This document shows positions 9,699-46,219 of a stretch of 64,000 bases of DNA, piece by piece. The notes beneath the pieces are model-generated. The model ran no database searches and was not told where the DNA came from. It saw nothing but the letters and a program-made list of their open reading frames with translations. The stretch covers positions 67,701 to 131,700 of the forward strand of contig CAZDWN010000002.1 in NCBI GenBank assembly GCA_964509365.1, given 5' to 3'. Position 1 is the first letter of the stretch. Each line of letters starts with the position of its first letter. The stretch is from an uncultured Pseudomonadales bacterium (GTDB lineage Bacteria > Patescibacteriota > Microgenomatia > UBA1400 > UBA12028). Position numbers and translations under genes: made by a program.

Positions 9699-9704
9699 GC
9701 CAAT

Positions 9705-10894: not shown

Positions 10895-10896
10895 GA

Positions 10897-11973: not shown

Positions 11974-12023
11974 GAGCGTTCTATTGTACTAAATCCTGAG
12001 TGTCTAGGATACAATAGTATGTC

Positions 12024-28251: not shown

Positions 28252-28282
28252 CATCACCATGATTGCAAGTGGCTCATTTTAA
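28252..28282. repeat. 31-bp perfect direct repeat, copy 2
   Basis: Identical to 27551-27581. Lies 13 nt after the hepT stop. Contains the last 29 nt (…KMSHLQSW*) of the minus-strand 941-aa gene. Confidence 0.9.
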
Positions 28283-30995
28283 AAGACCACAGATGCTTCC
28301 AGTACGTCCATACTCCGATACACAGGAGAGTGAGGACGAAGAAACTTCCAAATAGCGCGAATTTATTTGCGAGGAGCAGATACAGCTCGCAGAGCAGCGC
28401 CAGCACGATAAAAAATTCTAGTCCAAAGTCGATCAACAGATATGCCGCTTCATCTAGCAGTTCGTGCGCTTTGAGCCCCATGGGATGAGTGTTGGGCCGG
28501 ATGGTCAATGCATGAGAAACATCATAACCCGATGGTACACATTCGGAGAGCGCATCAAACCCTTTCTTGTCGACCGAAAAACAGAGCGACTGCGTGCTCG
28601 TCGGCACTAGTAGTGCAAATTCGCCAAGCATATTTGTCGTCGCAAATCGATGGACTGCATTCTTCTCAGATTCTTTGAGCGTCACTCGTGCACCAGCGAT
28701 GGCTTCCCCGGTGACACTATTATGGATGGTCCCATGGAAAATCTGATGAGTATGGACTGACTTCATGTACGAGAGGTGCTCCAGGAAGGCTGGAATCAGC
28801 TCGATGACGGGGATACCAAGTCGCAGTGAGACAGAGGTAACCAAGCAAAAGAGAATAAAAAGCAGCATGCACAAAAAGAACAGATCCCAAAATCGTGGTG
28901 AGTCAGTAAGAGTCTGCAAAAATGTCTCGCCGGCTTCGACGATGTTTTGTCCAATATTGGTGTAGTACGAAGTAAACAAAGCGAGTGAAAATGGAAGTCT
29001 CTTGAGCGTCAGCGTCGGATAGGGTATGACAGTATCAAAGGAAATTGTAACTCTAATTGTCTGAGTCGCATAGCCGATCGATCGCAGTTCGATCTCATAC
29101 TGTCCAGCTGAGAGATTAAATGGCAATCGACCTCGATGATCAGAGAGCAAGAGACCTTTCACTGAGCTGCCTCCTGGTCGGATCGGGAGATAGATTCTCG
29201 CTGACTTGTCATAGCGCTTCACAGAAGCATGCACATTTTCGATGGGGTTCCCTTTCTCATCTTGGATGATGAGCGGTTGAATAAGCCGGATCGTTGCAAT
29301 GGGTTTTTCTTCCACGGATCCAGTTTTTGACTCGACGCGAAGCATCAATAGATAGGTGTCAGTTTGTTCAGGTGTCCTCATCTTGCCGACGAACTTATCT
29401 GGAGCGATTTGCATCAATGTGGCGATCGCCAGATCTGGCTCGCTGGTGGCATCGTCGGTGAGTCCGAGTATTTTTGCAGGTCGGAGCGAAGTGACTGCTG
29501 ACTTCACGCGGTCCCCGTGTGAGATGGAAAGTTGCAGATCGATCAGCTGATTGGCGACGATGCTCAGTCGTTGGCCATTTTGATCCGATTGCTCTCCATA
29601 AATTGGACTTCCATCTTGCAGCAAGACAAATGACTCAGTGATCGCTTTTGGCATCAAGGCATCGGTTTTGGCAGTCTTAAACGTAAAGATATCCGACGAG
29701 GTGATTTTCCTGCCATCTTGATACACGTCAAACACGACATAGTAGTGAGTGTCATCTTTTAGGCCCGGGATATTTATTTCGTGCACCGTTAGAGGTGCGG
29801 TTGTTGAAAAACTTCCAGTGAGAGCCTTGGGAGCGAGGCCATATCTGACGGTCAGATTGGCAGGGGCACTCAAACGGACTGAAAAAATCGCTGAGGTATC
29901 AAATAATGATCCCAGCGCAATACTGGTAAACGGATGTGAACCCAACGGCGCTGATACTGTTGGACTGCCAGTGCTTGTGACTGCAATCGGCGTGGGAGTC
30001 GGTGTGTTCGTGCTCGTATTCACGTAGAGATACGTGATTGTTTGCGTCGCGACTTCACTTTGTGCTGGTGCGATGATCTGGGCGTGGATGGGGATCACCA
30101 CTTTTTTTTCTCCAGTGTACTGCTCATTTGTTTTGAGAGTGAAGTGAACCGATTGATTTGGCAAATTCGCCGGATAGCTGGCAATACTCCAAGTGATCGT
30201 TCGATTCACCGTATCGATGACTGGAGGAGTGTTCCCATAGGCGTTTGTAGCGCTACCGATGACATACTCCAAGATGTCTTGGCTCGCGGTGGTTTGCCCT
30301 TCTGGCGTCCCGAGGTCCCACGATGCTTGGAGAGTCATTGGTCCAGTCACCATTGCGTCAGTCCCATAGGTGAACGTATAGCCAAGCTCGGTATCTTGGC
30401 GATTGAGCTCATTATGCTGATCAGGAGTGAGTGTGGCCGTGAGATTTGAGGTCGCCGGTGGGACGATCGCATTGATGACGATTTGATCGTTTGCGGTGGT
30501 CTCGGTCCAGACGTTTTGTGTATCGATGACGGTACTGCCTGCATCTTGAGTGCTGACGACCGTCAAGTATTCCGCCGCCGACCGATTGAGAGGAAACCCC
30601 CCAGAAATAAAAAATGCATAGGTGGTCCCAGGGCTTAGATCGCCGATGGCAAATGTCAGTGTGTGCCCCGTGATACTACTCGCTGTGAACCCAGTCAATG
30701 GAAGTGGAGTCAAGCCTGAGGGGATGCCGACGGTCGTCGTGGTGTAGTCTGATGCAGTGGTCGAAAAATGAGTTCCAGCAGTCCAGCGGCTATCGAGCTG
30801 AAGGACAAGTTTGGATTCCGTCCCGATGCTCGCTGGATTGACCTCTACTAGTATGTCACCAGGAGCGATTCCCGCTTTGGTTCGATCGGGTCGGATCAAG
30901 ACTTCGGTAAAGTTTCCTGCGTGGACAGTTTGGATGAAAAAAGACCCACTGAAGATGAGTAAAAAGCAAGCCAGAATCCGCGTCAAAAATCGCAT
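28254..30995 (-). CDS. large secreted/membrane surface protein: family-A N-terminal domain, CarboxypepD_reg-like beta-sandwich repeats, C-terminal multi-TM region
   Basis: Start at MRFLTRILACFLLIFSGSFF. N-terminal 190 aa (RPDRTKAGIAPGDILVEV...TANDQIVINAIVPP) is homologous to the N-terminus of 20505 and 21659. YEIELRSIGYATQTIRVTIS resembles the CarboxypepD_reg fold. 3-4 C-terminal TM helices. Confidence 0.5.
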   Translation of the reverse strand: MRFLTRILACFLLIFSGSFFIQTVHAGNFTEVLIRPDRTKAGIAPGDILVEVNPASIGTESKLVLQLDSRWTAGTHFSTTASDYTTTTVGIPSGLTPLPLTGFTASSITGHTLTFAIGDLSPGTTYAFFISGGFPLNRSAAEYLTVVSTQDAGSTVIDTQNVWTETTANDQIVINAIVPPATSNLTATLTPDQHNELNRQDTELGYTFTYGTDAMVTGPMTLQASWDLGTPEGQTTASQDILEYVIGSATNAYGNTPPVIDTVNRTITWSIASYPANLPNQSVHFTLKTNEQYTGEKKVVIPIHAQIIAPAQSEVATQTITYLYVNTSTNTPTPTPIAVTSTGSPTVSAPLGSHPFTSIALGSLFDTSAIFSVRLSAPANLTVRYGLAPKALTGSFSTTAPLTVHEINIPGLKDDTHYYVVFDVYQDGRKITSSDIFTFKTAKTDALMPKAITESFVLLQDGSPIYGEQSDQNGQRLSIVANQLIDLQLSISHGDRVKSAVTSLRPAKILGLTDDATSEPDLAIATLMQIAPDKFVGKMRTPEQTDTYLLMLRVESKTGSVEEKPIATIRLIQPLIIQDEKGNPIENVHASVKRYDKSARIYLPIRPGGSSVKGLLLSDHRGRLPFNLSAGQYEIELRSIGYATQTIRVTISFDTVIPYPTLTLKRLPFSLALFTSYYTNIGQNIVEAGETFLQTLTDSPRFWDLFFLCMLLFILFCLVTSVSLRLGIPVIELIPAFLEHLSYMKSVHTHQIFHGTIHNSVTGEAIAGARVTLKESEKNAVHRFATTNMLGEFALLVPTSTQSLCFSVDKKGFDALSECVPSGYDVSHALTIRPNTHPMGLKAHELLDEAAYLLIDFGLEFFIVLALLCELYLLLANKFALFGSFFVLTLLCIGVWTYWKHLWSFKMSHLQSW

Positions 30996-31057: not shown

Positions 31058-34000
31058 TTGGCGTATTCACACGCCTCAAATGTTGCTACAGTTGAGATTG
31101 TGTCAAACACTTTTCGCAGACACATTGCTACCCTTCTATTACTGACAGGGGTCTTTTTCTTATGGAGACCTACTGCGGTTTTTGCTGCCACCGGAACCTT
31201 CAAACAGATCAATTTCCAGGGGAAAGTGGTCAATAAGACCACAGGAACGAATGTCGCCGACGGATCGTACACATTTGTGTTTAGTTTGTATACTGTCTCA
31301 TCGGCAGGCTCAAATATTTGGACCGAGTCAAAGAGTGTGACAGTCACCAATGGTATTTTTCAGACGTTTTTGGGCGATACAACGTCTCTTCCAGGATCGG
31401 TTGATTTCAATACTGACAATTTGTACCTGGGGATCAACTTCAATGGCGATGGTGAGATGAGTCCTCGGGTCCGATTTACCGCTGTTCCGCAAGCGATGAA
31501 TGCGCTCAAAGTCGCAGGTCTCACGGTCACAGATACGACTGGTACGTTGACGATCCCAAATGGCACGACGATCGCCTTCTCTGGGACAAACAATTTGACC
31601 TTTACGACCACGGGATCGACTGGCTTGACGTTGCCGACGACTGGTACCTTGGCGACCCTGGCCGGTTCAGAAGTCCTGACCAACAAGACCATTGGCTCGA
31701 CTGGTTTGGTCTTCTCTGGCGCCTCGACTGATATCGATACTGCAGCAGCCGAAGGGTTGGTGTTGCAGGGTCGCGCGGCATCTTCCTTCAACACGACGAG
31801 TGGTGCGATCTCGTTTCAAGCTGCTGGCTCGGGCACAATCTCGACTGTACAGATCGGTGCAGGTGGCGCTGGATCGACGACTCCCGATTACTTGGCATTA
31901 GATGTGAAAAGTGATACTGGAGATCCTGCAGGTGGAGCCGAAGGCTACATTTACTACAACACGTTTGATAACAAATTCCGCTGCTACCAAAACTCTGGCT
32001 GGACTGATTGTGTCGGCAGTGGAGTCACAGGGACTGGGACAGCTGGTACATTACCGATTTACACTGGTGCTGGTGCGACTATTGGCGATTCTTGGCTATC
32101 GCAAGCCAGTACCACTTTGACCCTGAGTACCGCGACGATTATCAGTGATGCGAGTCTCGCAACACTGACGTCCTCGACGGCATTGAGTCTCAATCCAAAT
32201 ACAGGGACGAGTTACACGTTGGATTCTACCGCCACAACTTTGAGTTTGTTCGGGACGGCAACAGCCCTGACATTTGGAAACTCCGCTTCGACGTTGGCAG
32301 TTGGTGCGTCTGGTGGCTTGACGGTCACTCCAGGTGGAGATATGACGTTTTCTGAAGCCCACAACAAAGGCTTCACGATCTCTGGGACGACCGCGACAAA
32401 TCGGACGACAGACCTCATGACCATCACACAAGCATCTGGTGCAGGCACTGGCACTGGAAATTTATTGCAATTGATAAATAATGACACCGATTCGACTGCA
32501 GCCCTCTTGGATATCAATCAAGGGACGGCTGGTGGTACAGGTATCAACTTCCCATTGGGTATCAGTACCGGTAATGCGATTAACATTTTTAGTACCATTA
32601 CGACTGGAAATGCGATCGCCATTCCTGCGATCGCGACCGTCACATCAGGCTCGGCCATCAACCTCAGTGGAGGTGTTACCGGAGCAGTAGCTGCCATGAC
32701 TGGAAGTTACATCAGTGTCTCACCGACTCGATCGAAGACATCTGGTGCGACGCTGATATCTGATACTGGTCATTTCCTCAGTCTCGTGCGTAGCAACTCA
32801 AATACTATTGCCGGTGGGACACTCGATATGCAAGGTGACGTGGCCGTGATCTCGTCCACATGTTCGCAAAGTGCGGGCACCTGCAGTGACTCATCACATA
32901 TTTTGTCACTGGCACAAAGTTACACTGCTGCTACAGGAAATGTCTTTGACGTGACCAATGCCGGCACGGGCAAAGGATTATTCCTCACTTCTTCTTCGAC
33001 GGGAAATTTGATGGAGCTTGATAGCTCAGGAGCAGTGACTACTCCAAAGGGCATCGTGATTGCCGCGACGAATGGCGCTGGTGTGATTACTGACGCACTG
33101 GATGTCTCTGATGCTGAGATCGTGAACGGTATCAATCTGGGAGCTAACAATATTTATTCTGTCGGCAATGTGAATTTTGCCGGAACTGCTACTGGTACAT
33201 CAGCAACAGGAATTGTACTTCCAGTAAAAACAGACTCTGGAGATCCGACCGTCACGCAAGCAAATGGAGAAATGTACTACAACAGTAATAGTGGCAAATT
33301 CCGCTGCTATCAAGCTTCCGCTTGGGTAGATTGTATAAACACGAGTAGTGGCATCACTGGGACGGGGACCGCTGGCACGCTGCCAATCTATACTGGTGCT
33401 GGTGCCACGATTGGAGATTCTTGGCTCTCGCAAGCAAGTACCACGTTGACACTCAGTACTGCTACTGCGATTAGCGACTCCGTCCTAGCGACATTGACTT
33501 CATCAACTGCATTAAGTCTCAATCCAAATACAGGAACCAGTTACACGCTCGATTCCACTGCGACGACACTCAATCTTTTCGGGACGGCAACAGCCCTGAC
33601 ATTTGGCAATTCCGCTTCGACGTTGGCAGTTGGCGCTTCTGGTGGATTGACTGTGACTCCAGGAGGTAATTTGACGATTGCTGAAGCTGCGACCAAAGGG
33701 ACCACGTTTACATCTGACTTGACCAGCGCAGGTCGCACGACAGATGTGGTGACGATTTCTCAGGCCAATGATGCGACTAATAATAGTACTGGAAATTTAC
33801 TTCAACTCACAAACTCAGATACCAGCTCAACCACTGCATTGCTTGATTTGAATCAAACTGCCCCTGCCGGCGGAATGATTAATATACCCGCAGGTATGTC
33901 CACTGGGACAGCGATCAATTTTGGAATGGGCATAACTACTGGGAAAATAATGCAGGTAATTGCTGCTTCCGTGACTTCGGGCAATGTGCTGGGATCATCT

Positions 34001-37000
34001 GGTGGCGACAATATTTCTGGAACATTAACAGCATTTTCCGGAAAGTACATTAGTTTGTCTCCGGTAAGAACTCACGTTGGAAACACGACCATTACTGAGT
34101 CTGGAAATTTTTTGAGTTTGGCAAGAAACGATGTGCAGGTGACAGGAACAGGCACTATCGCAATTACAGGAGACATGGCACTTCTGACATCTACATGCAG
34201 TCAGAGTGGTGGTTCATGTACTGACTCCTCACATATTTTGAACTTGCAGCAAAACTATGCTGCGGCGAATGGAAACGTATTCGAGCTCACCAATGCTGGG
34301 ACTGGCAAAGGAGTCTCACTCACTTCTTCATCGACCGGTACATTGATGGAATTGGATTCCTCTGGAGCGGTGACGACGGCAAAAGGATTGGTTATCGCCG
34401 CGACCAATGGCGCTGGAGTAATCACGGATGCGCTCGATGTCAGTGATGCAGAGATCGTCAATGGTATCAATGTGGGAGCGAACAATATCTATTCTGTCGG
34501 AAATGTGAATTTTGCTGGGACAGCGACTGGTACATCAGCAACAGGAATTGTACTTCCAGTAAAAACAGATTCTGGCGATCCGACCGTCACGCAAGCAAAT
34601 GGAGAAATGTACTACAACAGCAATAGTGGCAAATTTAGATGCTACCAAGCATCTGCATGGACTGATTGTATCGGGAGTGGAAGTGGTATTACTGGGACTG
34701 GGACCGCTGGGACATTACCGATTTATACGGGTGCTGGTGCGACGATTGGTGATTCTTGGTTGTCCCAGGCCTCGACGACGTTGACTCTCAGTACTGCGAC
34801 CATCATCAGTGATGCTTCACTCGCCACGTTGACGACTTCGACAGCATTTAATCTCAATCCAAATACTGGTACCAGTTATACGCTTGATTCCACAGCCACG
34901 ACTCTCAATCTCTTCGGTACAGCGACTGCGCTGACGTTCGGAAATTCAGCGACGACACTTGCATTCGGTGCCTCTGGAGGCACGACCATAACGCCTGGCG
35001 GAACCTTGACTATCGCAGAAGCGGCAACAAAGGGCACTATTCTGACTTCTACACTTACTAGTGGAGCCAGAAGTACATCTGTCTTCAGTATTACGCAAGC
35101 CAATGATGGGACCAATGACTTCGACTCTAGCACCACTGGATTGGTAAACCTAGTCAACGATGACCTTGGTTCTGCCTCTGCAATCGTATGGATCGATCAA
35201 AATGGGACTTCAAGCAGTGGTGATGAATCTGGTATCCACATCTCTGCTCCAAATACTGGCTCAGCTACCGGTATGGAGATCAATGTCGGAGATAATGCAT
35301 CAAACAACTATTCCGGAGGTGGTGGTCTGATTATTGATGACGCGTATGAAATGACGTCAGGCTCAGGGATAAGAATTGGAACTAGTACAGGCATTGGCTC
35401 TGGTACGACTCAGACTTTCTCGGGTAATTACATGGATATCTCTACTGAACTCGGTGCAGGTACGTTCTCACAGAGCTCTGGCACCAGAACTGAAAGCGGT
35501 CACTATCTCAACGTAGGGAGAGCGTACACCACGAGTGGCACAGGTACAGTCACAATTACGGGTGATTTAGCTTCCTTGGCTGCCACCTATACCGAGACCG
35601 CCGGTACCATTACTGATACATCAAATATCCTTTCATTGGCTCAGAACTGTGATGCGACGTCTACGGATTGTACAGGTGCAGTAATTGATTTGACCAACTT
35701 CGGTACTGGTGCAGCGCTTGATCTGGCGCAAACGAATACATCAGGGACACAAACAAATGGAATCTTTTTCAATCGAAACGGTACGAGTGGCACGACGACA
35801 AATGGAATTAACATCACCAATACCGCCGGCACACTTACGTATGGATTGACTTTTACGGGTACGACCGCGATTGGTACAGACATCAAACTACAAGGTGGGG
35901 AAACCATTAGCAACTCTGTTGCTGATACCATAGTGCTCGCCTCTGATGCCACGAATGGTGCTGGCGTAGCGAGACTTCCAGTGAAGACGGATACTGGAGA
36001 CCCAACGCTTAACGTCGAGGGGAACATTTACTACAATACCTTCGACAATAAATTCCGATGCTATCAAAACGCTGCCTGGACCGACTGTATCGGCTCTGGT
36101 GGAGCGACTGCTTTTGATACGATCAGTGATCCGACTGGGACCGGTGCGATCGCGATGGGCAACAACGCTCAGACACTTGATTTCATCTCTCCCTCGACTG
36201 CGACCGCGATGGATGGTTTGACCGTCACGTATACGAATGGCTCCGCGACTGACGTGACCACTCAACGCGGTTTTGTCGTAGCGAATCTCAATGATGCAGC
36301 GTCTACGGGTACTCTGGAATCTTTGGCTGTGATCGAAAACCGCGATATCAATGAGACATTAGGCAATGCACTATTGATCGATCAAGCTGGCGCGGGTACG
36401 ACGACCAATGCCCTTAAGATCAGTAATTCTGGAGGAAATATCACGACGGGTATCGCCATCGTCGACGGTGCTGGCGGCACTCTGACGACGGGCATCTCAG
36501 TCACGGGTGCGATGACCACCGGATTGACGATAGGCAGTGGGTCGGACGCGATCACCAGCGGCATCGTCCTTGGATCGACGGGTATTTCGACAGATATCAC
36601 CTTACAAAATGGAGAGAAGATCGACAATGATACCGACGGATATATCCAGTTTTCCGTCGGATCAAACTCCGGTCTTGTGATCAATGATGGCGGTCAGTCA
36701 TTTGGATTGGCGACCGCTGCAAGTGATGGCGGCGTATTTGGAGGTGCCGCGTATTATGGATTCAAAGACGCAGCCAACTCAGTCCAGTACTTTCTCTTGA
36801 CGCAAGCCGCGACCGCGAATACGGGGACGACGAGTCAAGCTGCACTCACATTTGCGACTCCAGTGAATACGACGGGTACAAACGTAAACGAAGGACTTGC
36901 GATCGCGACGACGATCGGCAATGCGAGTGCCGGGGCGAACACCGCCAACATCATCTCGATCGCGGCGCTTACTGGCGATGACCAAGTGACACTTAACGGA

Positions 37001-39820
37001 ATCAGTATCGGGACGCTGACTCCGAGTGCGGGGACAGAGACTGCGATCAAGATCGCATCAGGCTGGGACAAAGATATCTCTGGCGCTTCCTGGAATATCA
37101 CCAGTGGAGGTGTCTTGACCGTCACTTCCTGCAGTGGCTGTGGCGGCGGAGGGAGCACTTTACAGCAGGCCTATGATGCAGATGCGGATGGATCCGATGC
37201 AATCATTCTGATGACGACGACCGACGGCTCAATCATTTTCCAAACAGTAGCTGGTACACAATTTAAAATTGCAGCGACGGTCGCTCCGACAGTAGACTTG
37301 CAAGCAATCACGAACACAGGCTTTGGGACGGTGACCGATGGCGTCAATGGTCTCTCGATCGCCTTTACGCAAGCCGACGATGCGGATGCGACTGACACCA
37401 ATGCCGGTGCGAAGATCACGTTAACGTCCTCATCTGGTGATGCGGATACTCTGGTCGGACTTGATGTAGCCAATATTACTGGTGGCGCTGCAACGGAGAA
37501 AGGGATTCGTATTGGCTCTGGATTCGACCAAGACCTTGAGTTTGTCGATACCACGCCGGTTATCCGAATTCCGGATGCAAGTAGTCTGACGATACAAGGC
37601 GGCCAAGGAAATACACTGGCACAGATGACAGAATATTTCTCAGGAGCGAATTACGGTACATTTGAAGCCGGTGGATTTATCAATATTGATGGAAGTTACT
37701 ATGAAGATCAATTTATGAGTGGAGCTACGACAGCTACTGCTGACGTCGCTTTGTACTCAATCCGCTATGGAGACAAGCACGACTGGGTCTTTGATGAAGC
37801 AGGTGTCGCTTCTATCGGGAATGGGAGTGCAGCTTCAAACTCCTATGGCTGTTCGGTCAACCAAAACTCTGTAGGGCTCGGAAACATCAATGGAATGGTT
37901 CAATTGACACCTGAATTGACTACAAGTACTGCTGGAGTACGTGGAGCGGATTGTCGACTCACGATTGGCTCACAGACAGGCGCGTCAACGATTGGCATTT
38001 TGAATGTGGCAAACAAATGGGTGATGTATTGGAAAGTGAAGCCGAGTTCAAACTGGACCAATGCAAAAAGTGCCAGAGCAATGTATTTCGGTGCCAACAA
38101 CTTCTCAATGGCTTGGGATGGGACTATTCCCTACGGTACATCCGCAAACCCAGCACAATCAGGCGCTGCAATCATGATGTATAACGGAGACGCCACAAAT
38201 AATAATGTGGGCTCAAATTGGCGAGGAATTGTGGTAAATGGAACGCTTGCGAATCAAACAGGTGTCCCATGTGGCGTGAGTGTCGTGACGACTGCATTTG
38301 CTCTTCTGAGGATTGAAGCTCGAGCGACTAACGAAGTTGGCTTCTTTGTTGATCCTGATATGTCCAATGGTATCAGTATGACAAATTGTGGCAATGCGAC
38401 CGTAAACGTCCCGTCTGTCAACTTGGCACCAGCTCTCAATGTCGGAAATTCTCTAGCGACAGGTCAAGTGGGTTGGGGGTCGTGGTCAGCTCAAGTGGAC
38501 TTGTTTGCCTATGTCCAGGACGACCCACGTGATTTTTCGACGCCGCAGTCTTTGGTTTCGAGTGAATCTAGTACGCCTTCGAATCCAATTCCACCAAATC
38601 CAATAACTGGTGCTGACTTAGCTGAACACTACTATTTTCATTCTGAACATGATTTTGGCGATATCGTCACGTTTGGGACTGCCCCAGGGACTGCAAGTCG
38701 TTCGGCAACTCCATATGATCGAAAGATTCTCGGAGTAGTCTCGCAATCTCCTGGGCTGACGATCGGAGAGGCTGATGAGACGAGCTCCCCAATCGCGCTC
38801 ACTGGTCGTGTCCCCACGAAGATCAATTCCAAAGGTGGCTCAATACACATAGGTGATCCGATTACGACTTCTGACATTGCCGGGTATGGTATGCGCGCGA
38901 AAGGACCGGGAAAGATCGTTGGCACAGCGATGGAAAATTTTGAGTGTGAACGCAGCTATTGCGAAGGTACGATCATGGTGAATGTGAATGTGGGATATTA
39001 TCTCGGTGATGAGGGAGATACTGCTCTCTTGGTGCAAAAAGAAGTCGCCTCTTTTGGAGCCACACTTTCACAATCTGAACTCACATCTTTGACTGCGTCA
39101 GCAAGTGGAGTACTCGGTGTCAGTTCAGAAGCGACTCAAGGGCTTATTGCAAAATTTATGGAGATGACGGGAGGATTGAGAGTTGCTTCGGCTTTTGAAA
39201 GTATCGGGACTGCCATTTTTCGAGGACCATCAGATTTCTTCTCTAAAGTGATGTTCAAGGATAAAGTGGGTTTTGAAAATCAAGTGACGTTTAACTCTGA
39301 TACAGCTGGAAATGCGGTCATAAAGTCAGGTGAGCGATTCGTCGATGTGACCTTCGATCACGAATATGATGTCGATCCAATTGTCAGCGCAAATCTCATT
39401 ATTGCTAGAGTCACACAGGAAAACATTCCAGAATATATTGAGAAGAAATTATGTGAGGCTGATGACACCATAGATGCTTGTCAAGATAAAGTCTCGAGCA
39501 GCACTTTGAGTGTCGATGTCCGCTACGCAGTAGTGAGTCGTTCAAAGCAAGGGTTTATGATCCTGCTCTCAAAAGAGACACCGGTAGACATGTTGTTTAG
39601 CTGGAGCGCTGTGACTGTCAAAGGTGCGAAGACGTCAGTGAGTCGCACCTCCGTAAGCAGCGGCTCTGCTCTCTTATCACCGATCTCTACCCAACATCCG
39701 AGCGCAAGTCCGCTCGTATCACCTCTGCCGATTTTGTCGCCGCTGCCGACTTCACTCCCTGTACTTGCGACACCTTCCGCTACAATAGCTCCTGTTGCGA
39801 CTTCTTCCGGTCAACTGTAA
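31058..39820 (+). CDS. giant (2,920 aa) cell-surface protein with four ~440-aa tandem internal repeats and a P/S/T-rich C-terminal tail
   Basis: Signal peptide/anchor (RRHIATLLLLTGVFFLWRPTAVFAATG). Uninterrupted 8.76 kb ORF, G/T/S/A-rich. Motif (S/T)GDP...(M/I)YYN..(N/G)KFRCYQ..(A/G)W(T/V)DC at aa ~289, 727, 1167 and 1650. Confidence 0.7.
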   Translation: MAYSHASNVATVEIVSNTFRRHIATLLLLTGVFFLWRPTAVFAATGTFKQINFQGKVVNKTTGTNVADGSYTFVFSLYTVSSAGSNIWTESKSVTVTNGIFQTFLGDTTSLPGSVDFNTDNLYLGINFNGDGEMSPRVRFTAVPQAMNALKVAGLTVTDTTGTLTIPNGTTIAFSGTNNLTFTTTGSTGLTLPTTGTLATLAGSEVLTNKTIGSTGLVFSGASTDIDTAAAEGLVLQGRAASSFNTTSGAISFQAAGSGTISTVQIGAGGAGSTTPDYLALDVKSDTGDPAGGAEGYIYYNTFDNKFRCYQNSGWTDCVGSGVTGTGTAGTLPIYTGAGATIGDSWLSQASTTLTLSTATIISDASLATLTSSTALSLNPNTGTSYTLDSTATTLSLFGTATALTFGNSASTLAVGASGGLTVTPGGDMTFSEAHNKGFTISGTTATNRTTDLMTITQASGAGTGTGNLLQLINNDTDSTAALLDINQGTAGGTGINFPLGISTGNAINIFSTITTGNAIAIPAIATVTSGSAINLSGGVTGAVAAMTGSYISVSPTRSKTSGATLISDTGHFLSLVRSNSNTIAGGTLDMQGDVAVISSTCSQSAGTCSDSSHILSLAQSYTAATGNVFDVTNAGTGKGLFLTSSSTGNLMELDSSGAVTTPKGIVIAATNGAGVITDALDVSDAEIVNGINLGANNIYSVGNVNFAGTATGTSATGIVLPVKTDSGDPTVTQANGEMYYNSNSGKFRCYQASAWVDCINTSSGITGTGTAGTLPIYTGAGATIGDSWLSQASTTLTLSTATAISDSVLATLTSSTALSLNPNTGTSYTLDSTATTLNLFGTATALTFGNSASTLAVGASGGLTVTPGGNLTIAEAATKGTTFTSDLTSAGRTTDVVTISQANDATNNSTGNLLQLTNSDTSSTTALLDLNQTAPAGGMINIPAGMSTGTAINFGMGITTGKIMQVIAASVTSGNVLGSSGGDNISGTLTAFSGKYISLSPVRTHVGNTTITESGNFLSLARNDVQVTGTGTIAITGDMALLTSTCSQSGGSCTDSSHILNLQQNYAAANGNVFELTNAGTGKGVSLTSSSTGTLMELDSSGAVTTAKGLVIAATNGAGVITDALDVSDAEIVNGINVGANNIYSVGNVNFAGTATGTSATGIVLPVKTDSGDPTVTQANGEMYYNSNSGKFRCYQASAWTDCIGSGSGITGTGTAGTLPIYTGAGATIGDSWLSQASTTLTLSTATIISDASLATLTTSTAFNLNPNTGTSYTLDSTATTLNLFGTATALTFGNSATTLAFGASGGTTITPGGTLTIAEAATKGTILTSTLTSGARSTSVFSITQANDGTNDFDSSTTGLVNLVNDDLGSASAIVWIDQNGTSSSGDESGIHISAPNTGSATGMEINVGDNASNNYSGGGGLIIDDAYEMTSGSGIRIGTSTGIGSGTTQTFSGNYMDISTELGAGTFSQSSGTRTESGHYLNVGRAYTTSGTGTVTITGDLASLAATYTETAGTITDTSNILSLAQNCDATSTDCTGAVIDLTNFGTGAALDLAQTNTSGTQTNGIFFNRNGTSGTTTNGINITNTAGTLTYGLTFTGTTAIGTDIKLQGGETISNSVADTIVLASDATNGAGVARLPVKTDTGDPTLNVEGNIYYNTFDNKFRCYQNAAWTDCIGSGGATAFDTISDPTGTGAIAMGNNAQTLDFISPSTATAMDGLTVTYTNGSATDVTTQRGFVVANLNDAASTGTLESLAVIENRDINETLGNALLIDQAGAGTTTNALKISNSGGNITTGIAIVDGAGGTLTTGISVTGAMTTGLTIGSGSDAITSGIVLGSTGISTDITLQNGEKIDNDTDGYIQFSVGSNSGLVINDGGQSFGLATAASDGGVFGGAAYYGFKDAANSVQYFLLTQAATANTGTTSQAALTFATPVNTTGTNVNEGLAIATTIGNASAGANTANIISIAALTGDDQVTLNGISIGTLTPSAGTETAIKIASGWDKDISGASWNITSGGVLTVTSCSGCGGGGSTLQQAYDADADGSDAIILMTTTDGSIIFQTVAGTQFKIAATVAPTVDLQAITNTGFGTVTDGVNGLSIAFTQADDADATDTNAGAKITLTSSSGDADTLVGLDVANITGGAATEKGIRIGSGFDQDLEFVDTTPVIRIPDASSLTIQGGQGNTLAQMTEYFSGANYGTFEAGGFINIDGSYYEDQFMSGATTATADVALYSIRYGDKHDWVFDEAGVASIGNGSAASNSYGCSVNQNSVGLGNINGMVQLTPELTTSTAGVRGADCRLTIGSQTGASTIGILNVANKWVMYWKVKPSSNWTNAKSARAMYFGANNFSMAWDGTIPYGTSANPAQSGAAIMMYNGDATNNNVGSNWRGIVVNGTLANQTGVPCGVSVVTTAFALLRIEARATNEVGFFVDPDMSNGISMTNCGNATVNVPSVNLAPALNVGNSLATGQVGWGSWSAQVDLFAYVQDDPRDFSTPQSLVSSESSTPSNPIPPNPITGADLAEHYYFHSEHDFGDIVTFGTAPGTASRSATPYDRKILGVVSQSPGLTIGEADETSSPIALTGRVPTKINSKGGSIHIGDPITTSDIAGYGMRAKGPGKIVGTAMENFECERSYCEGTIMVNVNVGYYLGDEGDTALLVQKEVASFGATLSQSELTSLTASASGVLGVSSEATQGLIAKFMEMTGGLRVASAFESIGTAIFRGPSDFFSKVMFKDKVGFENQVTFNSDTAGNAVIKSGERFVDVTFDHEYDVDPIVSANLIIARVTQENIPEYIEKKLCEADDTIDACQDKVSSSTLSVDVRYAVVSRSKQGFMILLSKETPVDMLFSWSAVTVKGAKTSVSRTSVSSGSALLSPISTQHPSASPLVSPLPILSPLPTSLPVLATPSATIAPVATSSGQL
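31915..36110 (+). repeat. approximately 1.3 kb tandem intragenic repeats (3 full copies plus a partial fourth) within the giant gene
   Basis: Motif copies at nt ~31922, 33236, 34556 and 36005 (spacing 1314, 1320, 1449). About 75-80% nucleotide identity overall, but 33150-33300 vs 34485-34635 are ~95-97% identical. Confidence 0.75.
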
Positions 39821-39836: not shown

Positions 39837-41612
39837 TTAATGGAGTTCTTGCAGCTTGTTGAGATTTTGTTTGGCGCTCTCTAATGAAGGGTTAATCTGG
39901 AGGGCTTTTTCAAAAGCCTGGCGTGCTAGTGAGTATTCTCCCGACAGGGCGTAGACAGCACCAATGTTGTTGAGGATTGATGTGTCACTCGGCGCAATTT
40001 GTAATGCGCCCGTATAGGCTCGCAGTGCCAACTCATATTTTCCCAATTGCCTATAGGCGTTGGCGAGAATGATCAGGCGCTCGAACTCATTCACAGGATG
40101 TTCAGTTGAGCGCAATAGGAGCTCAACCGCTTTCGCATGATCGCCTTTTGAGTCATACAGTAATCCCAATGTTGTTCGAATTTCTGGGTAATCTGGGTTG
40201 GTTTTGTATGCTTGTTGGTACTGATATAACCCAGCGTCCATTCTGTTTTGCGATAGATAATAATTTCCCAAATAAATCCTTGCCAAAACCGCGTTCGGAT
40301 TGACAGCCACAGTCCTAGTCCACAGCGTCACGTCATCTTTCCAATCCAAATTACGCTGAGAACTTAGAACCGAGTATGCCAAGACAATGCAGATGAGTGC
40401 TATCCAGGCAAATTGCTGTTTTGAAGACTTGAGTGGTCCACTGGTTAGTGGGAGTACTTGAGTAAACAGTGTGGTTATGAGCAGAAGAAATCCATACGAG
40501 GGGACATACGCAAATCGTTCGACCATAATTGCTTCAGTTGGAATGATATTTAGAGTAGTCAAGAAACTTACAAAGAACCATAGGATAGCAAACGAGAGAA
40601 TTGGGTTTTTCTTGCGGAATGTGATCGCCACACAGAGTGAAAAAAAGATGATAGTGATCGCGGCAATACTTTCTAATTGAAAGAGAGAGAGTGAGTACAT
40701 GACTTGTTTAGTAGAAAGGCTAGCGCGCTCCATTTCGACGACCCAGGATGAAATCCCAGATCCCAGACTGTGGTTTATGGTCAAACCGAGAGGAATGAGT
40801 AGCACGTGTAGATAGCGCAAAAATGCTTTGAGCATGACAAAAAATTGGACTGAGGGATGACCCAATAAGAATCCAGCGCGAGCACCTGCATGAGCGAGGA
40901 AAGTACGCATTGCAAGATATACAACCAAAACGATTGCGAAGGGTATGTTTCTTCCGAATCGCTTCCAGATTGATTGACCAGGATAGAGAAAATAAATATC
41001 GACCAAAAAAAGCAAACCGGGAAGTGTCAGAGTCACTTCATTGGTGCCAAACGCCAAAAATGCGAACAAGATGGCTCCACAAGCTAGAGCTATTCGATAT
41101 CGAGGATCTTCACTCAGTCGAATGTAAAGATACACCGAGAGAAACATAAACACGATCCCAAACATATCCATGCTTGACGTGATCCACGTGACTGCTTCTA
41201 CATGAATGGGATGGAGCGCAAACAGGAGTGCGACTACAAATGGAAAATACGCATCTTTGGTCAATCGTCTGGTTATCAAATAGACCAAAATCGATGTACT
41301 CATCTCGATGCCAATGCTTTGCAGGTGATATCCAAAAGGATTTTTCCCCCAAATCTTATCGTCGATGATGTAGAGAATGTTACGTACGGGACGATAATTG
41401 CCTCCATGCGTGGGTGGCGTTTCGCCTAGAATGAAACGTGGAATACTGCTCCACTCTTGCTTCGCTTCCCAATTGATCACCGTATCCTTATCATCCCAGG
41501 CAAATCCATTTCCGAAGATATTAGCGTAGGTAAGCAGTACACTGATGATGATTACGAAGACTTGAAGATCTTTACGCTTCAGCTTATGGAGGAGGTACGA
41601 AATATAGTTCAT
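39837..41612 (-). CDS. TMTC-like GT-C glycosyltransferase: N-terminal multi-TM domain with FAWDD motif plus C-terminal TPR repeats
   Basis: ANIFGNGFAWDDKDTVINW after TM1 (TMTC/DUF1736-type F-x-W/F-DD loop-1 motif). About 11 TM helices. About 5 TPR repeats at the C-terminus (YYLSQNRMDAGLYQYQQAYKTNP...). 591 aa. Confidence 0.5.
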   Translation of the reverse strand: MNYISYLLHKLKRKDLQVFVIIISVLLTYANIFGNGFAWDDKDTVINWEAKQEWSSIPRFILGETPPTHGGNYRPVRNILYIIDDKIWGKNPFGYHLQSIGIEMSTSILVYLITRRLTKDAYFPFVVALLFALHPIHVEAVTWITSSMDMFGIVFMFLSVYLYIRLSEDPRYRIALACGAILFAFLAFGTNEVTLTLPGLLFLVDIYFLYPGQSIWKRFGRNIPFAIVLVVYLAMRTFLAHAGARAGFLLGHPSVQFFVMLKAFLRYLHVLLIPLGLTINHSLGSGISSWVVEMERASLSTKQVMYSLSLFQLESIAAITIIFFSLCVAITFRKKNPILSFAILWFFVSFLTTLNIIPTEAIMVERFAYVPSYGFLLLITTLFTQVLPLTSGPLKSSKQQFAWIALICIVLAYSVLSSQRNLDWKDDVTLWTRTVAVNPNAVLARIYLGNYYLSQNRMDAGLYQYQQAYKTNPDYPEIRTTLGLLYDSKGDHAKAVELLLRSTEHPVNEFERLIILANAYRQLGKYELALRAYTGALQIAPSDTSILNNIGAVYALSGEYSLARQAFEKALQINPSLESAKQNLNKLQELH

Positions 41613-43285
41613 TATGTGCGTCTATGAAGTTCTTTCAGTTCTAGCCCAGCATATTTCGGATTGTCGCCTTTCGGATAAGAATCGAAGGTGAATCGCTTGA
41701 GAATTTCTTGGCATTTCTCAGGATAGATGTCACAAGTATGAGTTTCAAACATGAAGACAGGTTTCCCTTTGCTCAGATAATCGTCGACAAAATCCATGAC
41801 ATGGACATCTGTCATAAAGTTATCGGTATAAATTGCCGTTTTCCCATGGAGATGGATTGGCGCTAATACTCCAAAAATGAATGCACTGTCGGGCGGCGTT
41901 TGAGGAATCATCACATCTTCAATGTATGCGTGCAAAGTTCGTGGACCGACTTCTACTAAAGAATCCCAGGGTGATGTAGTAATGAGTCTTCGATACGAAG
42001 TAATCGTGGGGACGATGCTGAGAAGCAACACTCCTGCTCCGATCAGCATCCAATTTCGAGTTTGAAATGATGCTTTTCGAAACGACTGATTCAGGTCCCT
42101 GAGCGCAATGCTTGCGAAGATAGTAAGCGGGACACTCTCCATGAGAAAAAATCGTCCGTAGGAACCCGAAAAAGTATATGAGTAAAACTGACCTGCATAA
42201 TAAAATGAATAGATAAAAAAGAAACCACACATCCAGTAGACAAATATGAGAAGACGAAAATCTCGACTTCTCCTCGTCCAGCGTATCGAAAATAGCGTCA
42301 GAGATGCAAGGATGGTGATTGCTAGAGGAAACTCTGGTCGATTCACAAAAGTTAACACATTCGGAAGAGTGTTTCGCATAACATAACTTGTCGTAAATAT
42401 CTCTAATGGCGTCGCTTCGGCGCAGCACCAAATGCTTGAAAATACAGGCACCGAGACGAGTGCTCTGATGAGAACGACAGGGACAAGCAGTGCAAGCACC
42501 AGTCGATCCATGCCAACAAACAGTTTTTGCTTGCGATAATGCCTCATACTTAGTGCGGCAATTCCAAGCGCCGGCAACATGAGGAAGCTCTCGAATCGAA
42601 CCATAAGCAGTAGAAAAACAGAAAGCCAAACGAACGCTGCATCGAATAGTGATTGTTTTCTAGAGTAGAGGATGACTGCAAGTAGTGAAAGCAGCGAGAA
42701 CGTGACAAAGTACACATCAATATTTGTACTCACTGACCAATAGACTGTCAGAGGTGCAAATGCGAAAATACTGGATGAAAATAGTGCAGTAAGTTGATCA
42801 TCAAAAAGTTCTAGGACAACAATAAAAAGTAGTAGTATCTGTACCGTACTCGCGAGCTTTGCGAATCGAAACAAATTGAGTTCATCAAAGCCAAAGAGTT
42901 TTAAGACCCATGCATTGATAACGGGTACCGTGATACGAGCAGCAGGGTCCGGATCGCCTAAAAGTATTTGAGATTCAGTGGAAAGTAATAAGCTGACTGC
43001 TTGCCCATGTCGTGCGAAATTGATGGAATACGATAAGTATCTATCCTCATCAAAATAGACTCTATGCCCATTTGGTACCCATGCAAATCGAATGAGTCCA
43101 CCTAGAATGCAGATACTTACCAATCCAAGTGATACTCCTCGATGCATGGACTTCACTCGTTTCAGGAGTAATGGGAAGTACGATGCACACACGCCAAGTA
43201 GCAGCAAGAGCATGACGCTGACAGACCAAGGTGCGATAACAGCTATCAAATATCGAGTTGCTAGAAGTAAGTATGCGCTAATCAT
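41612..43285 (-). CDS. PMT/GT39-like GT-C membrane glycosyltransferase
   Basis: Loop-1 motif VYFDEDRYLSYSINFARHG resembles the protein-O-mannosyltransferase DE motif (VFDEVHFGGFASQYI). At least 11 TM helices. 557 aa. Start overlaps the downstream stop. Confidence 0.45.
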   Translation of the reverse strand: MISAYLLLATRYLIAVIAPWSVSVMLLLLLGVCASYFPLLLKRVKSMHRGVSLGLVSICILGGLIRFAWVPNGHRVYFDEDRYLSYSINFARHGQAVSLLLSTESQILLGDPDPAARITVPVINAWVLKLFGFDELNLFRFAKLASTVQILLLFIVVLELFDDQLTALFSSSIFAFAPLTVYWSVSTNIDVYFVTFSLLSLLAVILYSRKQSLFDAAFVWLSVFLLLMVRFESFLMLPALGIAALSMRHYRKQKLFVGMDRLVLALLVPVVLIRALVSVPVFSSIWCCAEATPLEIFTTSYVMRNTLPNVLTFVNRPEFPLAITILASLTLFSIRWTRRSRDFRLLIFVYWMCGFFFIYSFYYAGQFYSYTFSGSYGRFFLMESVPLTIFASIALRDLNQSFRKASFQTRNWMLIGAGVLLLSIVPTITSYRRLITTSPWDSLVEVGPRTLHAYIEDVMIPQTPPDSAFIFGVLAPIHLHGKTAIYTDNFMTDVHVMDFVDDYLSKGKPVFMFETHTCDIYPEKCQEILKRFTFDSYPKGDNPKYAGLELKELHRRT

Positions 43286-45294
43286 TTTGAATCCAATTCT
43301 ATAGTGAACTTTTTAGCCAACTGTGTCGCTCGCTCGCGTTCCTCCTCAGGCAAAGGATATGACATGTAGCGTTCTAGGTAGTGCTTCGCTTTCGACATGT
43401 CGTGGAAGCAGGCTGCATAGAGGATAGCGATGTCTAAGACAGTTTTGCTCACATTTTGTTCTCCACGGATAGACAGTGCGGTCAAGAAATAGTGTTCAGA
43501 CGCTTCGCAGTCACCTTGAGCTGCTTTGATTCGCCCCATCTCCGTATTGAGGGGGAAATTCCACTGGGATTCTGGGATCTTTTTTAACGTGCTCTCAGCT
43601 GCACGAAGTTGACCATCAAATCGATACAAGGATGAAAGCTGACCCAATGCCAGAATATTTTGAGGATACCTGCTGGTGAAATTTTCCATCTCTGTAATCG
43701 CGTCTTTGATTCGAGTTGGATCGAATCCCAAATTTCGGCTTAAATCCACGAAATTGAGTTTTTTATGGGCGAGCGTATTGGGGTCGACTTGTGAGCTTCG
43801 CAGAAATAGGATTCCATCATAATCGATATAAAATAGAGCCCAATCTGACTTCTTTCCAAAATAAGTAGTGACGTAATCGTTCTCCTTGCTCGTAAGAATT
43901 GCGTTGATCTCATTATCATCTACAAATTCACGGATATTTTCATCGGAAATAGTTGAAAGCCTTCCATAAGCTCCTATCGTGTCATTTGAATCAAAAAAAT
44001 CATCTCGAGCATCAATCTGTTGTTTCTGCGGAAACAGACAATAATAGATATAGCCTGTAATTTCAGTTGAGACGAGGATATTTGGAGGAACTTTATTTTC
44101 TTTTAGAATCTTGCATTGTTCGCTCGGTGGCGCAAAGCGAGTCTGCCTCGGCGGAAACGCCGCCCAGACGCACATGACTAGTATGGCAGAAAATAATGAC
44201 AATACGGGCCAAATTTTCCGTTGTCGAAAATGCTTTGGGAGGCTCTTAATTAACGAGTCGATTGTAACGCCAAACAACGGTAAGGTGACGAATACTGCAA
44301 GCGGGATGAAGCGCACGAAAAAGAAACCGAACCATAAAAAAATACCAGTTGGGATGAGAGGATATATTTTCGTCAAGAATTTTTGCTTTGTTCGAATGAG
44401 TAAAAACGTAAATGAGATGACAGTGACGAGACCGTAGAGCAAAAAAAGAATGTAGTACGCTGGTGAAACATCAGACTTGAAAATACTCGTGTTCGTGACC
44501 TCGAGAGCCCCGGCGAGTGTGCTGTACCACTTCGCATTTCCTAACAGCGCATAGCCGGTGAGACCGTAGAGATACAGCCGAAAGCCGTATGGGTTGATGA
44601 GTGTAGCCAACAATGTGATTGTACCGAGTAGCGGAGCTATCCATGAAGTCGTCGTTGGAAATAGTCTAGCCATCAGCACCTGTCGAAATGTAAATGCGGT
44701 GACGAGCAAGGCGAACAGCAGAATATATCCGCCTGAAACGTTAGCAAAGAGGATGCCTACAAAAGGAAGAAGATAGAGCAATTTGGATCGGTGTAGTCTC
44801 CATTCCTCGAAGAGGACTTCAACAGATAGTAGGAGGATCAACGAAGCGATCAATGGATGCATTTTCCAAAAACTTAAAAGTAGTAGCGCGCCAATTGTTG
44901 TCGACACTGTTTCTGAACAACGAGAGATATGGTGAAGAGAGAATAGATGCTGCAGCAGGACAAAAGCTCCTATAGTAATCGGAATCAGCACTAGGAGTGG
45001 ACCGAATGTCTCACTAGGTCGAAACGACATATACGCGAGGACATCAAATAACCAGCTATGGCTTATCCATTCGAGCGAAGGGGCTGCTTCCTTATAGGAG
45101 ATATCAGTTTGACCAGGAATACTGTGCCTGGAGAGTATGTACCTGCCAATGCCAAAATGGAGGTATGAATCTGGCACGAGCAGGTTTCCCATTCCAATTA
45201 CAACAACGAAAATGATACTGAAAACCAAGAACAAGCGAAAAGTAGCATTATTGCTGATAGGTTGAGACATAGGTAAACACCAATTTGGAGACAT
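43282..45294 (-). CDS. multi-TM membrane protein with C-terminal TPR repeats (GT-C-like, family unclear)
   Basis: About 12 TM helices then TPR-like repeats (LGQLSSLYRFDGQLRAAESTLKKIPE...). 670 aa. 4-nt overlap with the downstream gene. Confidence 0.4.
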   Translation of the reverse strand: MSPNWCLPMSQPISNNATFRLFLVFSIIFVVVIGMGNLLVPDSYLHFGIGRYILSRHSIPGQTDISYKEAAPSLEWISHSWLFDVLAYMSFRPSETFGPLLVLIPITIGAFVLLQHLFSLHHISRCSETVSTTIGALLLLSFWKMHPLIASLILLLSVEVLFEEWRLHRSKLLYLLPFVGILFANVSGGYILLFALLVTAFTFRQVLMARLFPTTTSWIAPLLGTITLLATLINPYGFRLYLYGLTGYALLGNAKWYSTLAGALEVTNTSIFKSDVSPAYYILFLLYGLVTVISFTFLLIRTKQKFLTKIYPLIPTGIFLWFGFFFVRFIPLAVFVTLPLFGVTIDSLIKSLPKHFRQRKIWPVLSLFSAILVMCVWAAFPPRQTRFAPPSEQCKILKENKVPPNILVSTEITGYIYYCLFPQKQQIDARDDFFDSNDTIGAYGRLSTISDENIREFVDDNEINAILTSKENDYVTTYFGKKSDWALFYIDYDGILFLRSSQVDPNTLAHKKLNFVDLSRNLGFDPTRIKDAITEMENFTSRYPQNILALGQLSSLYRFDGQLRAAESTLKKIPESQWNFPLNTEMGRIKAAQGDCEASEHYFLTALSIRGEQNVSKTVLDIAILYAACFHDMSKAKHYLERYMSYPLPEEERERATQLAKKFTIELDSK

Positions 45295-46186: not shown

Positions 46187-46219
46187 ATTCCTATGAACTT
46201 CATATTGTATACTTGAGCT

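Follow-up and report, generated by a model that had tools for sequence, protein, structure and literature searches.

A giant, predicted surface fibre of Patescibacteria with a C-terminal chaperone domain of the phi29 gp12 type

The protein gp12, the pre-neck appendage or tailspike of Bacillus phage phi29, reportedly cleaves itself once it has trimerised, between S691 and D692, and bacterial adhesins are said to have been predicted to use the same route. gp12 forms homotrimers, and virions lack its intramolecular chaperone (IMC) domain (PMC9863714). The body of that chaperone is made of beta strands, in contrast to the S74 type (PMC4690869). The mosaic adhesive trimer (MAT) fibres of Bdellovibrio bacteriovorus combine an invariant N-terminal domain lacking any homologue in the PDB with a mosaic stalk and swappable lectin-type tips, and many of them end in an S74 chaperone (PMC10769870). 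Here we describe the gene of a giant protein on the plus strand (31058-39820) of a 64,000-nucleotide (nt) window, the whole stretch of DNA that was analysed, from an uncultured bacterium of the Patescibacteriota (contig CAZDWN010000002.1). On balance we favor its being a giant surface adhesin fibre of Microgenomates-type Patescibacteria, trimeric, assembled with an autochaperone and built like a phage tail spike or fibre. We are more confident that it is a secreted fibre with a G2-type chaperone domain than we are of this reading as a whole, and less confident that it is actually cleaved, that it is oriented as we propose, and that it binds a host.

The part of the protein that carries this reading lies toward the C terminus. 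An earlier note on this DNA had proposed comparing the C terminus with phage tail-fibre chaperones, and the comparison was productive, leading to phi29 gp12. An AlphaFold2 (AF2) model of amino acids (aa) 2225-2880, made from a 17-row alignment with a mean predicted local distance difference test (pLDDT) of 62, contains three beta domains. The features of this region are as follows.

37760-38527, plus strand: concanavalin-A-like (ConA-like) jellyroll of the L-type lectin/LamG type, the predicted distal binding head (from AF2 and Foldseek)
38609-39007, plus strand: 'GADLAE' domain, a Peptidase_G2-type intramolecular chaperone/autoproteolysis domain (from profile and fold)
39008-39289, plus strand: low-confidence helical linker, longer and coiled-coil-like in many homologues (from AF2 and homologue sequences)
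39290-39643, plus strand: H-type-lectin-like beta domain with a Cys-pair insert of ~40 aa (from Pfam PF09458 in relatives)
39644-39820, plus strand: C-terminal tail rich in P, S, T and L, with the stop codon (from composition)

The GADLAE domain is modelled as all-beta with pLDDT 80-89. A profile of 26 diverse copies (A3) searched against the PDB found the phi29 gp12 chains 3gqh_A (E 1.6e-4), 6qz9_A (E 4.4e-4) and 3suc_A (E 1.8e-3), with D2520-L-A-E2523 of the giant protein aligned to D692-F-A-E695 of gp12. The structure of the released autochaperone (3gqh) starts at the aligned Asp, and that of the uncleaved form (3suc) has Gln at the aligned Glu. The predicted scissile bond thus lies between Ala2519 and Asp2520 (Asp codon 38615-38617), with Glu2523 the predicted catalytic residue. 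Comparison of the model with BFVD by Foldseek gave a 'Preneck appendage protein barrel' (E 1.7e-10, target-normalized template-modelling score (TMt) 0.62). Pfam PF11962 (Peptidase_G2, 'IMC autoproteolytic cleavage domain') matches the relative P0172 at the start of its GADLAE domain with 37.1 bits against a cut-off of 25, and P0153 near threshold. The D, A and E of DLAE are invariant in one alignment (A1), the Asp and Glu are at least 90% conserved in A3, and D-[LFYVI]-A-E is near-invariant across 387 copies of the domain in the fetched proteins. From profile, fold and active-site conservation we conclude that the GADLAE domain is homologous to the Peptidase_G2 intramolecular chaperone of phi29 gp12.

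The domain is common. In a full HMMER scan it was present in 15,700 cluster representatives at E <= 1e-3, of which 3,022 reached 1e-10, most of the proteins being 500-6,800 aa in length. It lies a median of 360 residues from the C terminus (387 copies), and some proteins carry two. Many of the proteins P0130-P0270 have tandem G2-like copies, first 'GADLAE' and then 'SYDFAE', and some of these match Pfam Phage_cement_2. PHROGs gave phrog_6427 (of unknown function) and a weak tail-fibre family, both for the GADLAE domain only, and tblastn gave a weak match in a virion/baseplate protein of a PA5oct-like jumbo phage. No close relative of the G2 domain was found in viral contigs.

The likeness to phi29 gp12 (PDB 3GQH, 3SUC, 6QZ9; PF11962) extends beyond the D-x-x-E at the cleavage/catalytic position. 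In both proteins an N-terminal attachment domain leads into a long stalk of beta structure, after which comes a binding region that directly precedes the chaperone. The giant protein differs in being cellular, Sec-exported and 3.4 times longer, and no teichoic-acid-degrading domain was detected in it.

Immediately upstream of the chaperone, aa ~2235-2490 are modelled with pLDDT ~60-80. Foldseek against the PDB aligned this part with the carbohydrate-recognition domain of Emp47p, ERGIC-53, legume lectins and the Hc part of botulinum neurotoxin (BoNT) (E 2e-6 to 1e-4, probability ~1.0), so that the model places it in the ConA-like lectin/glucanase fold. The match to the L-type/legume lectin and LamG group (Emp47p, ERGIC-53, BoNT Hc-N) is one of fold (best E 2e-6, TMt ~0.55) with moderate model confidence and no match at the level of sequence, and relatives carry LamG, Laminin_G or Toxin_R_bind_N at the same position. 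Among the relatives the domain just upstream of G2 is variously ConA-like, LamG, Laminin_G, Toxin_R_bind_N or Kelch, and this variability fits a distal specificity head.

Downstream of the chaperone the last globular domain (aa ~2745-2862) aligns with a set of 16 relatives, 14 of which match the H-type lectin family PF09458, to which Helix pomatia agglutinin and discoidin II belong (best E 1.9e-9); P0015 and P0040 exceed the Pfam cut-off at the aligned position. Unlike these, the copy in the giant protein gives no Pfam match at E <= 1, probably because of its Cys-pair insert of ~40 residues, and it lies downstream of the predicted autocleavage site. A profile of the H-lectin-like domain gave no significant match in the PDB. 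The tail is rich in P, S, T and L, much as the earlier note described it, and the C terminus (...PVATSSGQL) has no LPXTG, no hydrophobic or transmembrane (TM) helix and no basic residues.

The reading frame is intact in the assembled sequence. A single uninterrupted open reading frame (ORF) runs through 31058-39820 in one frame, 2920 codons counted from the first TTG, in agreement with the 2,920-aa protein first proposed. Translation more likely begins at the in-frame GTG at 31100, since P0002, the closest homologue, has its initial Met at the equivalent residue; this gives 2906 aa. The N terminus has a hydrophobic core followed by VFA-A, a predicted signal-peptide cleavage site, and the protein would be exported by the Sec pathway and reach the cell surface.

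31100-31186, plus strand: the likely start codon (GTG 31100) with the Sec signal peptide MSNTFRRHIATLLLLTGVFFLWRPTAVFA/ATGT, the slash marking the predicted cut (from in-frame start codons and the start of P0002)
31187-31552, plus strand: conserved N-terminal domain (INFQGKVVN...GEMSPRVRFTAVPQAMNA), family signature and proposed cell-proximal docking domain (from the anchor pattern)

A pattern search found the I-x-[FY]-Q-G-[KR] anchor of this N-domain of ~120 aa in 158 of 270 fetched relatives. Its profile (alignment A4) gave no significant match in the PDB, and the domain had no match in Pfam. Just C-terminal to it there is an internal LPTTG of the sortase type (31631-31645, aa 192-196), retained as TLPT[TS]GTLATLAG in many homologues; it lies far from the C terminus and no membrane anchor follows it. 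A sortase-anchored (LPXTG) adhesin was rejected, this LPTTG at aa 192 being the only LPXTG-like match and there being no C-terminal anchor. So was a giant adhesin of the RTX type exported by a type I secretion system, there being no GG.G.D match and an N-terminal Sec signal instead.

The giant protein belongs to a family. Of 8,000 candidates scored in a homologue search, 261 proteins matched at E <= 1e-5; among the matches listed (120), all have 1,600-4,000 aa, and those with a source name are labelled as Patescibacteria lineages (Levyibacteriota, Moranbacteria and Woesebacteria). The family plan comprises a signal peptide, the N-domain, a mosaic stalk rich in G, T, S and A, a variable globular domain and a conserved C-terminal module. 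Relatives carry additional M23 peptidase, SH3, LamG, H_lectin, collagen and Peptidase_S74 domains. P0017 has collagen repeats directly after a Cys motif that is described below, and P0019 ends in Peptidase_S74 in place of the C-terminal module. Together with the gp12-type autochaperone homologue, these collagen and S74 domains support the earlier suggestion of a 'beta-helix or fibre'. In P0005-P0007, P0010, P0049, P0050, P0062 and P0073 an M23 endopeptidase follows the H-lectin-like domain, some also having SH3; lying downstream of the predicted autocleavage site, it could make a released fragment a lytic effector. Two contigs labelled 'uncultured Gammaproteobacteria', L002 and L003 (CAZNKB010000009.1 and CAZNKB010000006.1), encode C-terminal modules of the family with 44-47% identity, and the label probably reflects a mis-binned metagenome-assembled genome.

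Direct searches with the giant protein itself were largely silent. Pfam and NCBIfam, applied to the whole protein and to seven pieces, gave nothing except a sub-threshold Gp38_N at the starts of repeat units, and phmmer with the whole protein found no match in the PDB. When homologues were sought by word index, starting from the C-terminal 691 aa or from the first repeat unit, low-complexity words dominated, and there were 8 and 1 matches, respectively.

The MAT fibres offer a second comparison. Like the fibres predicted for the giant family they belong to the surface of a bacterium rather than to a virus, their owner attacking other bacteria. The general plan is alike as well, with an unvarying N-domain, a stalk of mosaic make-up, exchangeable lectin tips and a chaperone at the C terminus. 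The S74 C terminus of many MAT fibres is matched by that of P0019, and the N-domain of the family is likewise without a relative in the PDB. The family belongs to a different phylum, its chaperone is of G2 rather than S74 type, and its members are much larger (up to >6,000 aa). Cys-stapled hairpins and units of ~445 aa have not been described for MAT fibres.

The stalk (aa 160-2230) contains 13.8% G, 17.6% T, 10.5% S and 11.3% A, bearing out the Gly/Thr/Ser/Ala-rich sequence first noticed around the repeats. Its features are the following.

31910-32011, plus strand: Cys-pair motif, copy 1 (subtype A: YIYYNTFDNKFRCYQNSGWTDC)
32012-33334, plus strand: repeat unit U1 (441 aa), with motif copy 2 (subtype B, 33233-33334) at its end
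33335-34669, plus strand: repeat unit U2 (445 aa), with motif copy 3 (subtype B, 34568-34669) at its end
34670-36088, plus strand: repeat unit U3 (473 aa, the most diverged), with motif copy 4 (subtype A, 35987-36088) at its end
36089-37747, plus strand: non-periodic stalk rich in G, T, S and A, ~25% identical to the units, holding the junction motif VTSCSGCGGGGSTLQQAYD

Four repeats of ~1.3 kb had been proposed. There are indeed four copies of the Cys-pair motif, but the motif-to-motif periods of 1323, 1335 and 1419 nt define only three complete units, U1 (aa 319-759), U2 (aa 760-1204) and U3 (aa 1205-1677), each closed by a motif. The region upstream of motif 1 resembles only the last ~165 aa of a unit, and that downstream of motif 4 is ~25% identical to a unit. 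The region without a long repeat spans ~1240 aa, not the C-terminal 450 aa given in the earlier note. U1 and U2 are 74% identical in amino acid sequence, U1 and U3 47%, and U2 and U3 50%; the corresponding nucleotide identities over whole units are 69.6%, 55% and 56%. The figure of 75-80% nucleotide identity given earlier holds for the first ~300 nt of each unit but not for whole units.

Each unit opens with a conserved segment, 'GTLPIYTGAGATIGDSWLSQ', located in U1 at 32075-32146 (aa 340-363), on which Pfam Gp38_N, the N-terminal domain of a phage tail-fibre adhesin, scores 20.4 bits, below the cut-off of 25. At 37121-37150 (within 37121-37177, aa 2022-2040) there is a second junction motif, VTSCSGCGGGGSTLQQAYD, which takes the form ASCTGCGGG in homologues. 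This motif and the last part of the KFRCY motif (..W.DCIGSGGS.TLQQAYD) seem able to replace each other, like alternative connectors to the same downstream module.

The stalk is also where family members differ. The nearest relatives, P0002 (71% identity) and P0003 (56%), share only the first ~220 and last ~1,000 residues with the giant protein, and contain no copy of the motif. A giant ORF at the syntenic locus L001 of Candidatus Gottesmanbacteria nzgw408 (2498-12244, 3248 codons as listed) shares only its C-terminal ~900 aa, at 45% identity; it has a TM-anchor N terminus instead of the conserved N-domain, and lacks the Cys motif. Because P0002 and P0003 share only their ends and the L001 protein only its last ~900 residues, we regard the stalk as a cassette region, and the differences of the L001 protein outside its C terminus mean that the gene at the locus is itself mosaic. 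One repeat unit occurs in P0004 and three in P0014, and the relatives examined have 0-10 copies of the motif and 0-3 units. No relative of the units was found in metagenome contigs. The comparison of sequences suggests that the family diversifies its stalk by module shuffling.

The Cys-pair motif recurs exactly as the earlier note described it, with four copies of KFRCYQ at aa 306, 747, 1192 and 1665 (nt 31973, 33296, 34631 and 36050), each within (S/T)GDP..(M/I)YYN..KFRCYQ..W.DC. There are two subtypes, copies 1 and 4 reading 'YYNTFDNKFRCYQ' and copies 2 and 3 'YYNSNSGKFRCYQ'. In the relatives first fetched there are 108 occurrences in 45 of 128 proteins, with 0-10 copies per protein and the family consensus (P)D(Y/F)L(A/G)LDVKSDTGDP-x4-6-G-x-(M/I)YYN-x5-KFRCY-x4-W-x-(D/N)C-IGSGG. 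The motif is a signature of the family rather than a local oddity.

We asked how the two cysteines are distributed using a Cys-agnostic pattern in 270 related proteins. Both were present in 107 instances, neither in 34 and a single Cys in 0, the Cys-less instances being a 'GYLAWD..GNQLI.YNG.AW' variant. The giant protein itself has 24 Cys residues. All of them fall into 12 tight pairs, with spacings of 3-39 residues within a pair and of at least 106 from one pair to the next, and random placement of the Cys reproduced this pairing in 0 of 200,000 trials. The pairs are 309/318, 602/609, 750/759, 1047/1054, 1195/1204, 1531/1538, 1668/1677, 2025/2028, 2265/2299, 2405/2444, 2630/2635 and 2799/2808. 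Each unit has a second pair, C-x6-C, which is lost in U3 where a new C-x6-C lies ~20 residues downstream; the homologue P0014 shows the same alternation as U3. The strict co-occurrence and complete pairing are consistent with the disulfide that had been thought possible, and the two motif Cys would then staple a small hairpin module. The motif is also the sole recurrent confident piece of an AF2 model of one unit, forming three short strands with pLDDT 64-78.

In the cystine knots of collagen, Cys residues at defined points hold or register the chains. The P22 tailspike has a 'cysteine annulus', with Cys at defined points of a trimeric fibre (PMC3357383). Both are analogies only. A collagen helix follows immediately on the Cys motif of P0017. 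In contrast to the annulus, the two motif Cys, at a distance of 9 residues in a predicted beta-hairpin, may pair within a single chain.

These elements can be assembled into a proposed pathway. The precursor would be exported, as its signal peptide predicts. The C-terminal module, comprising the G2-type chaperone, the helical linker and the H-type-lectin-like domain, would register three chains, by homology to phi29 gp12 and in view of the collagen or S74 domains of family members. The long beta stalk rich in G, T, S and A, including the three units of ~445 aa, would then fold, and each hairpin module (..GDP..YYN..KFRCY..W.DC) would be stapled by a disulfide between its own two Cys. If the alignment with the gp12 cleavage site is a guide, the chaperone would cut itself between Ala2519 and Asp2520 by means of the conserved Asp and Glu. 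This would leave a mature fibre of ~2,475 aa, its N-domain docked on the cell and its ConA-like lectin head distal, where the head could bind a glycan on another cell. The fibre would probably serve in adhesion to host or partner cells, matching the episymbiotic lifestyle of cultivated Patescibacteria.

Several observations weigh against the adhesin fibre as we have drawn it. Trimerization and cleavage are extrapolated from a distant homologue at a profile E of only 1e-4, and the giant protein's own sequence gives no Pfam G2 match. The residue before the Asp (P1) is Ala where phi29 has Ser (S691), and in the family the residues at this point vary (GA, SY, AF and TY among the 387 copies). The segment downstream of the predicted cut has 401 aa, with an extra H-lectin-like domain (M23 and SH3 in relatives) and the P/S/T tail, compared with ~163 aa in gp12. 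This is much to discard, and the segment may stay attached or be the functional end. The P/S/T tail and the wall-binding-type domains at the C terminus would fit the opposite orientation. The AF2 model of one unit, from an 8-row alignment, has a mean pLDDT of 49 and is unusable. Finally, the co-occurrence of the two Cys may reflect a single evolutionary event, because the both-Cys and no-Cys classes are two subfamilies.

The main alternative is one that we consider possible but doubt. In this the G2-like domain nucleates the trimer without cleavage, or the fragment stays bound, and the C-terminal segment is functional, whether as a receptor-binding or lytic tip, as a released effector or as an anchor in the cell's own wall with the N-domain facing outward. 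The size of the post-cleavage fragment, its conservation and its H_lectin-type domain, with M23 and SH3 in relatives, would be explained, as would the departure from phi29 at P1. P/S/T-rich tails are typical of the wall-spanning segments of Gram-positive surface proteins. There is also a precedent for an uncleaved autochaperone in the P22 tailspike (PMC4690869). Against this, the near-invariance of the gp12-aligned Asp and Glu in 387 copies is hard to explain without catalysis, the domain that varies among relatives lies upstream of G2, as expected of a distal specificity head, and the C terminus lacks LPXTG and any other known anchor.

It is improbable that the protein is instead a monomeric beta-solenoid adhesin or S-layer-associated protein, resembling filamentous haemagglutinin (FHA), an autotransporter or a Gram-positive adhesin, in which the G2-like domain is a degenerate relic. 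The composition of the stalk and its periodicity of ~20-25 residues do resemble beta-solenoids, and giant repetitive monomeric adhesins are common. But the catalytic-site motif of G2 is conserved, collagen and S74 modules occur in relatives that share the N-domain and the motif, and H-type lectins function as trimers. Moreover there is no Pfam match to adhesin repeat families, no RTX and no C-terminal LPXTG.

Superimposed on the divergence of the units is a short tract that is much more alike. The earlier note had reported near-identity of 33150-33300 with 34485-34635, and 142 of 151 nt (94%) are indeed identical; 33191-33285 is a 95-nt stretch with 2 mismatches that includes an exact run of 44 nt. 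The partners, then called repeats 2 and 3, do correspond to two copies of the repeat, but in the present division they lie at the 3' ends of U1 and U2.

33098-33320, plus strand: high-identity tract, U1 copy (core 33191-33285, partner in U2)
34433-34655, plus strand: high-identity tract, U2 copy

We examined synonymous positions in the tract, defined as columns 400-476 of the U1/U2 alignment (nt ~33098-33320 and 34433-34655). Where U1 and U2 encode the same degenerate amino acid, 49.5% of codons are identical overall, with 52/70 identical in the tract and 108/253 elsewhere (Fisher p = 2e-6). The best window of 30 codons has 28 identical (permutation p about 1e-4), and the tract also exceeds the equally well-conserved N-terminal block of the unit, where 50/100 codons are identical (p = 0.001). 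At four-fold sites 10/36 (28%) differ in the tract, compared with 38/71 and 54/87 in the rest of U1/U2; in other zones and unit pairs 54-66% differ, which is essentially saturation. Protein constraint alone does not account for the tract, because synonymous divergence is low there. The pattern of silent changes indicates that the U1/U2 tract probably has a much younger common ancestor than the units, consistent with the gene conversion or unequal exchange suggested before. The units themselves are old duplicates, their ends kept alike by selection on the protein.

That the tract is an assembler mis-join, or that selection on the nucleotides or codon bias produced it in a highly expressed, strongly conserved peptide, is very improbable. 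The contig does come from a metagenome assembly, and the tract falls on the peptide that is best conserved within the unit (100% aa identity). But in the N-terminal block, with 88-100% aa identity, four-fold sites differ at 54%, compared with 28% in the tract; 9 mismatches remain in 151 nt, the flanks are ~70% identical and the reading frame is intact across 8.7 kb. Given the last three points an assembly error is unlikely, and the mismatches and diverged flanks make collapse of identical reads unlikely. For giant surface proteins it is usual to find intragenic repeats that include a local conversion tract.

The added interest of this one is its phage-type assembly domain, with the hint that it gives of how these bacteria build host-binding fibres. 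According to PMC12206443, type IV pili are the only well-studied factor in recognition of and attachment to the host by Patescibacteria, or the Candidate Phyla Radiation (CPR). The giant protein is a good sequence-defined candidate for the means by which ultra-small episymbionts grip other cells, and it provides specific residues and parts to address, with maturation resting on D2520 and E2523, stability on the Cys pairs and specificity on the ConA-like head if the reading is right. Autochaperones of the phi29 type occur widely among giant proteins of cells, in a very large family of G2-like domains that the current Pfam G2 model barely detects, and stalk cassettes are exchanged within and between genes. 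In the literature, our coverage of which is incomplete, searches on the KFRCY motif, CPR giant surface proteins and Patescibacteria tail-fibre or chaperone proteins gave no description of the family, and we found no paper describing the wide cellular spread of the G2-like domain or the Cys hairpin module.

A broader proposal can be offered tentatively. Patescibacteria might have taken over phage tail-spike assembly, with its self-cleaving G2 chaperone, for a very large and fast-shuffling repertoire of giant trimeric surface fibres, which would be the main organelles by which they recognize hosts. Self-cleavage might also free a trimeric lectin fragment, in some cases with an M23 peptidase, as an effector aimed at the host wall, and the Cys-stapled hairpin of ~45 residues might be a previously undescribed registration or junction module for swapping stalk cassettes.

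The surroundings of the gene are cellular. Its neighbors encode TPR proteins, a PMT_2 (GT-C) glycosyltransferase, a beta-lactamase-like protein and other secreted multi-domain proteins. The four genes immediately downstream (39837-46324, minus strand), encoding a TPR protein, the PMT_2 GT-C glycosyltransferase, a second TPR protein and the beta-lactamase-like protein, are syntenic with 13602-20024 of L001 at 37-54% aa identity, and may glycosylate the S/T-rich fibre. A phage or prophage tail fibre gene was ruled out by these cellular syntenic neighbors and the Sec signal peptide. Scans for promoters and terminators at both ends of the giant gene found nothing, and the window contains no tRNA or Rfam match and no paralogue of the giant gene.

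On the other side a divergent minus-strand gene (28254-30995) encodes a large secreted protein with its own signal peptide and CarboxypepD_reg and FN3-like matches. Its longest ORF overlaps the TTG of the giant ORF, and its real ATG near 30995 leaves a spacer of ~100 nt. Further large proteins, at 22759-24927 and 47001-49283, have Ig-like/ASH, Big_13, FN3-like and thioredoxin-like (AhpC-TSA) matches, and probable surface proteins are frequent in the region.

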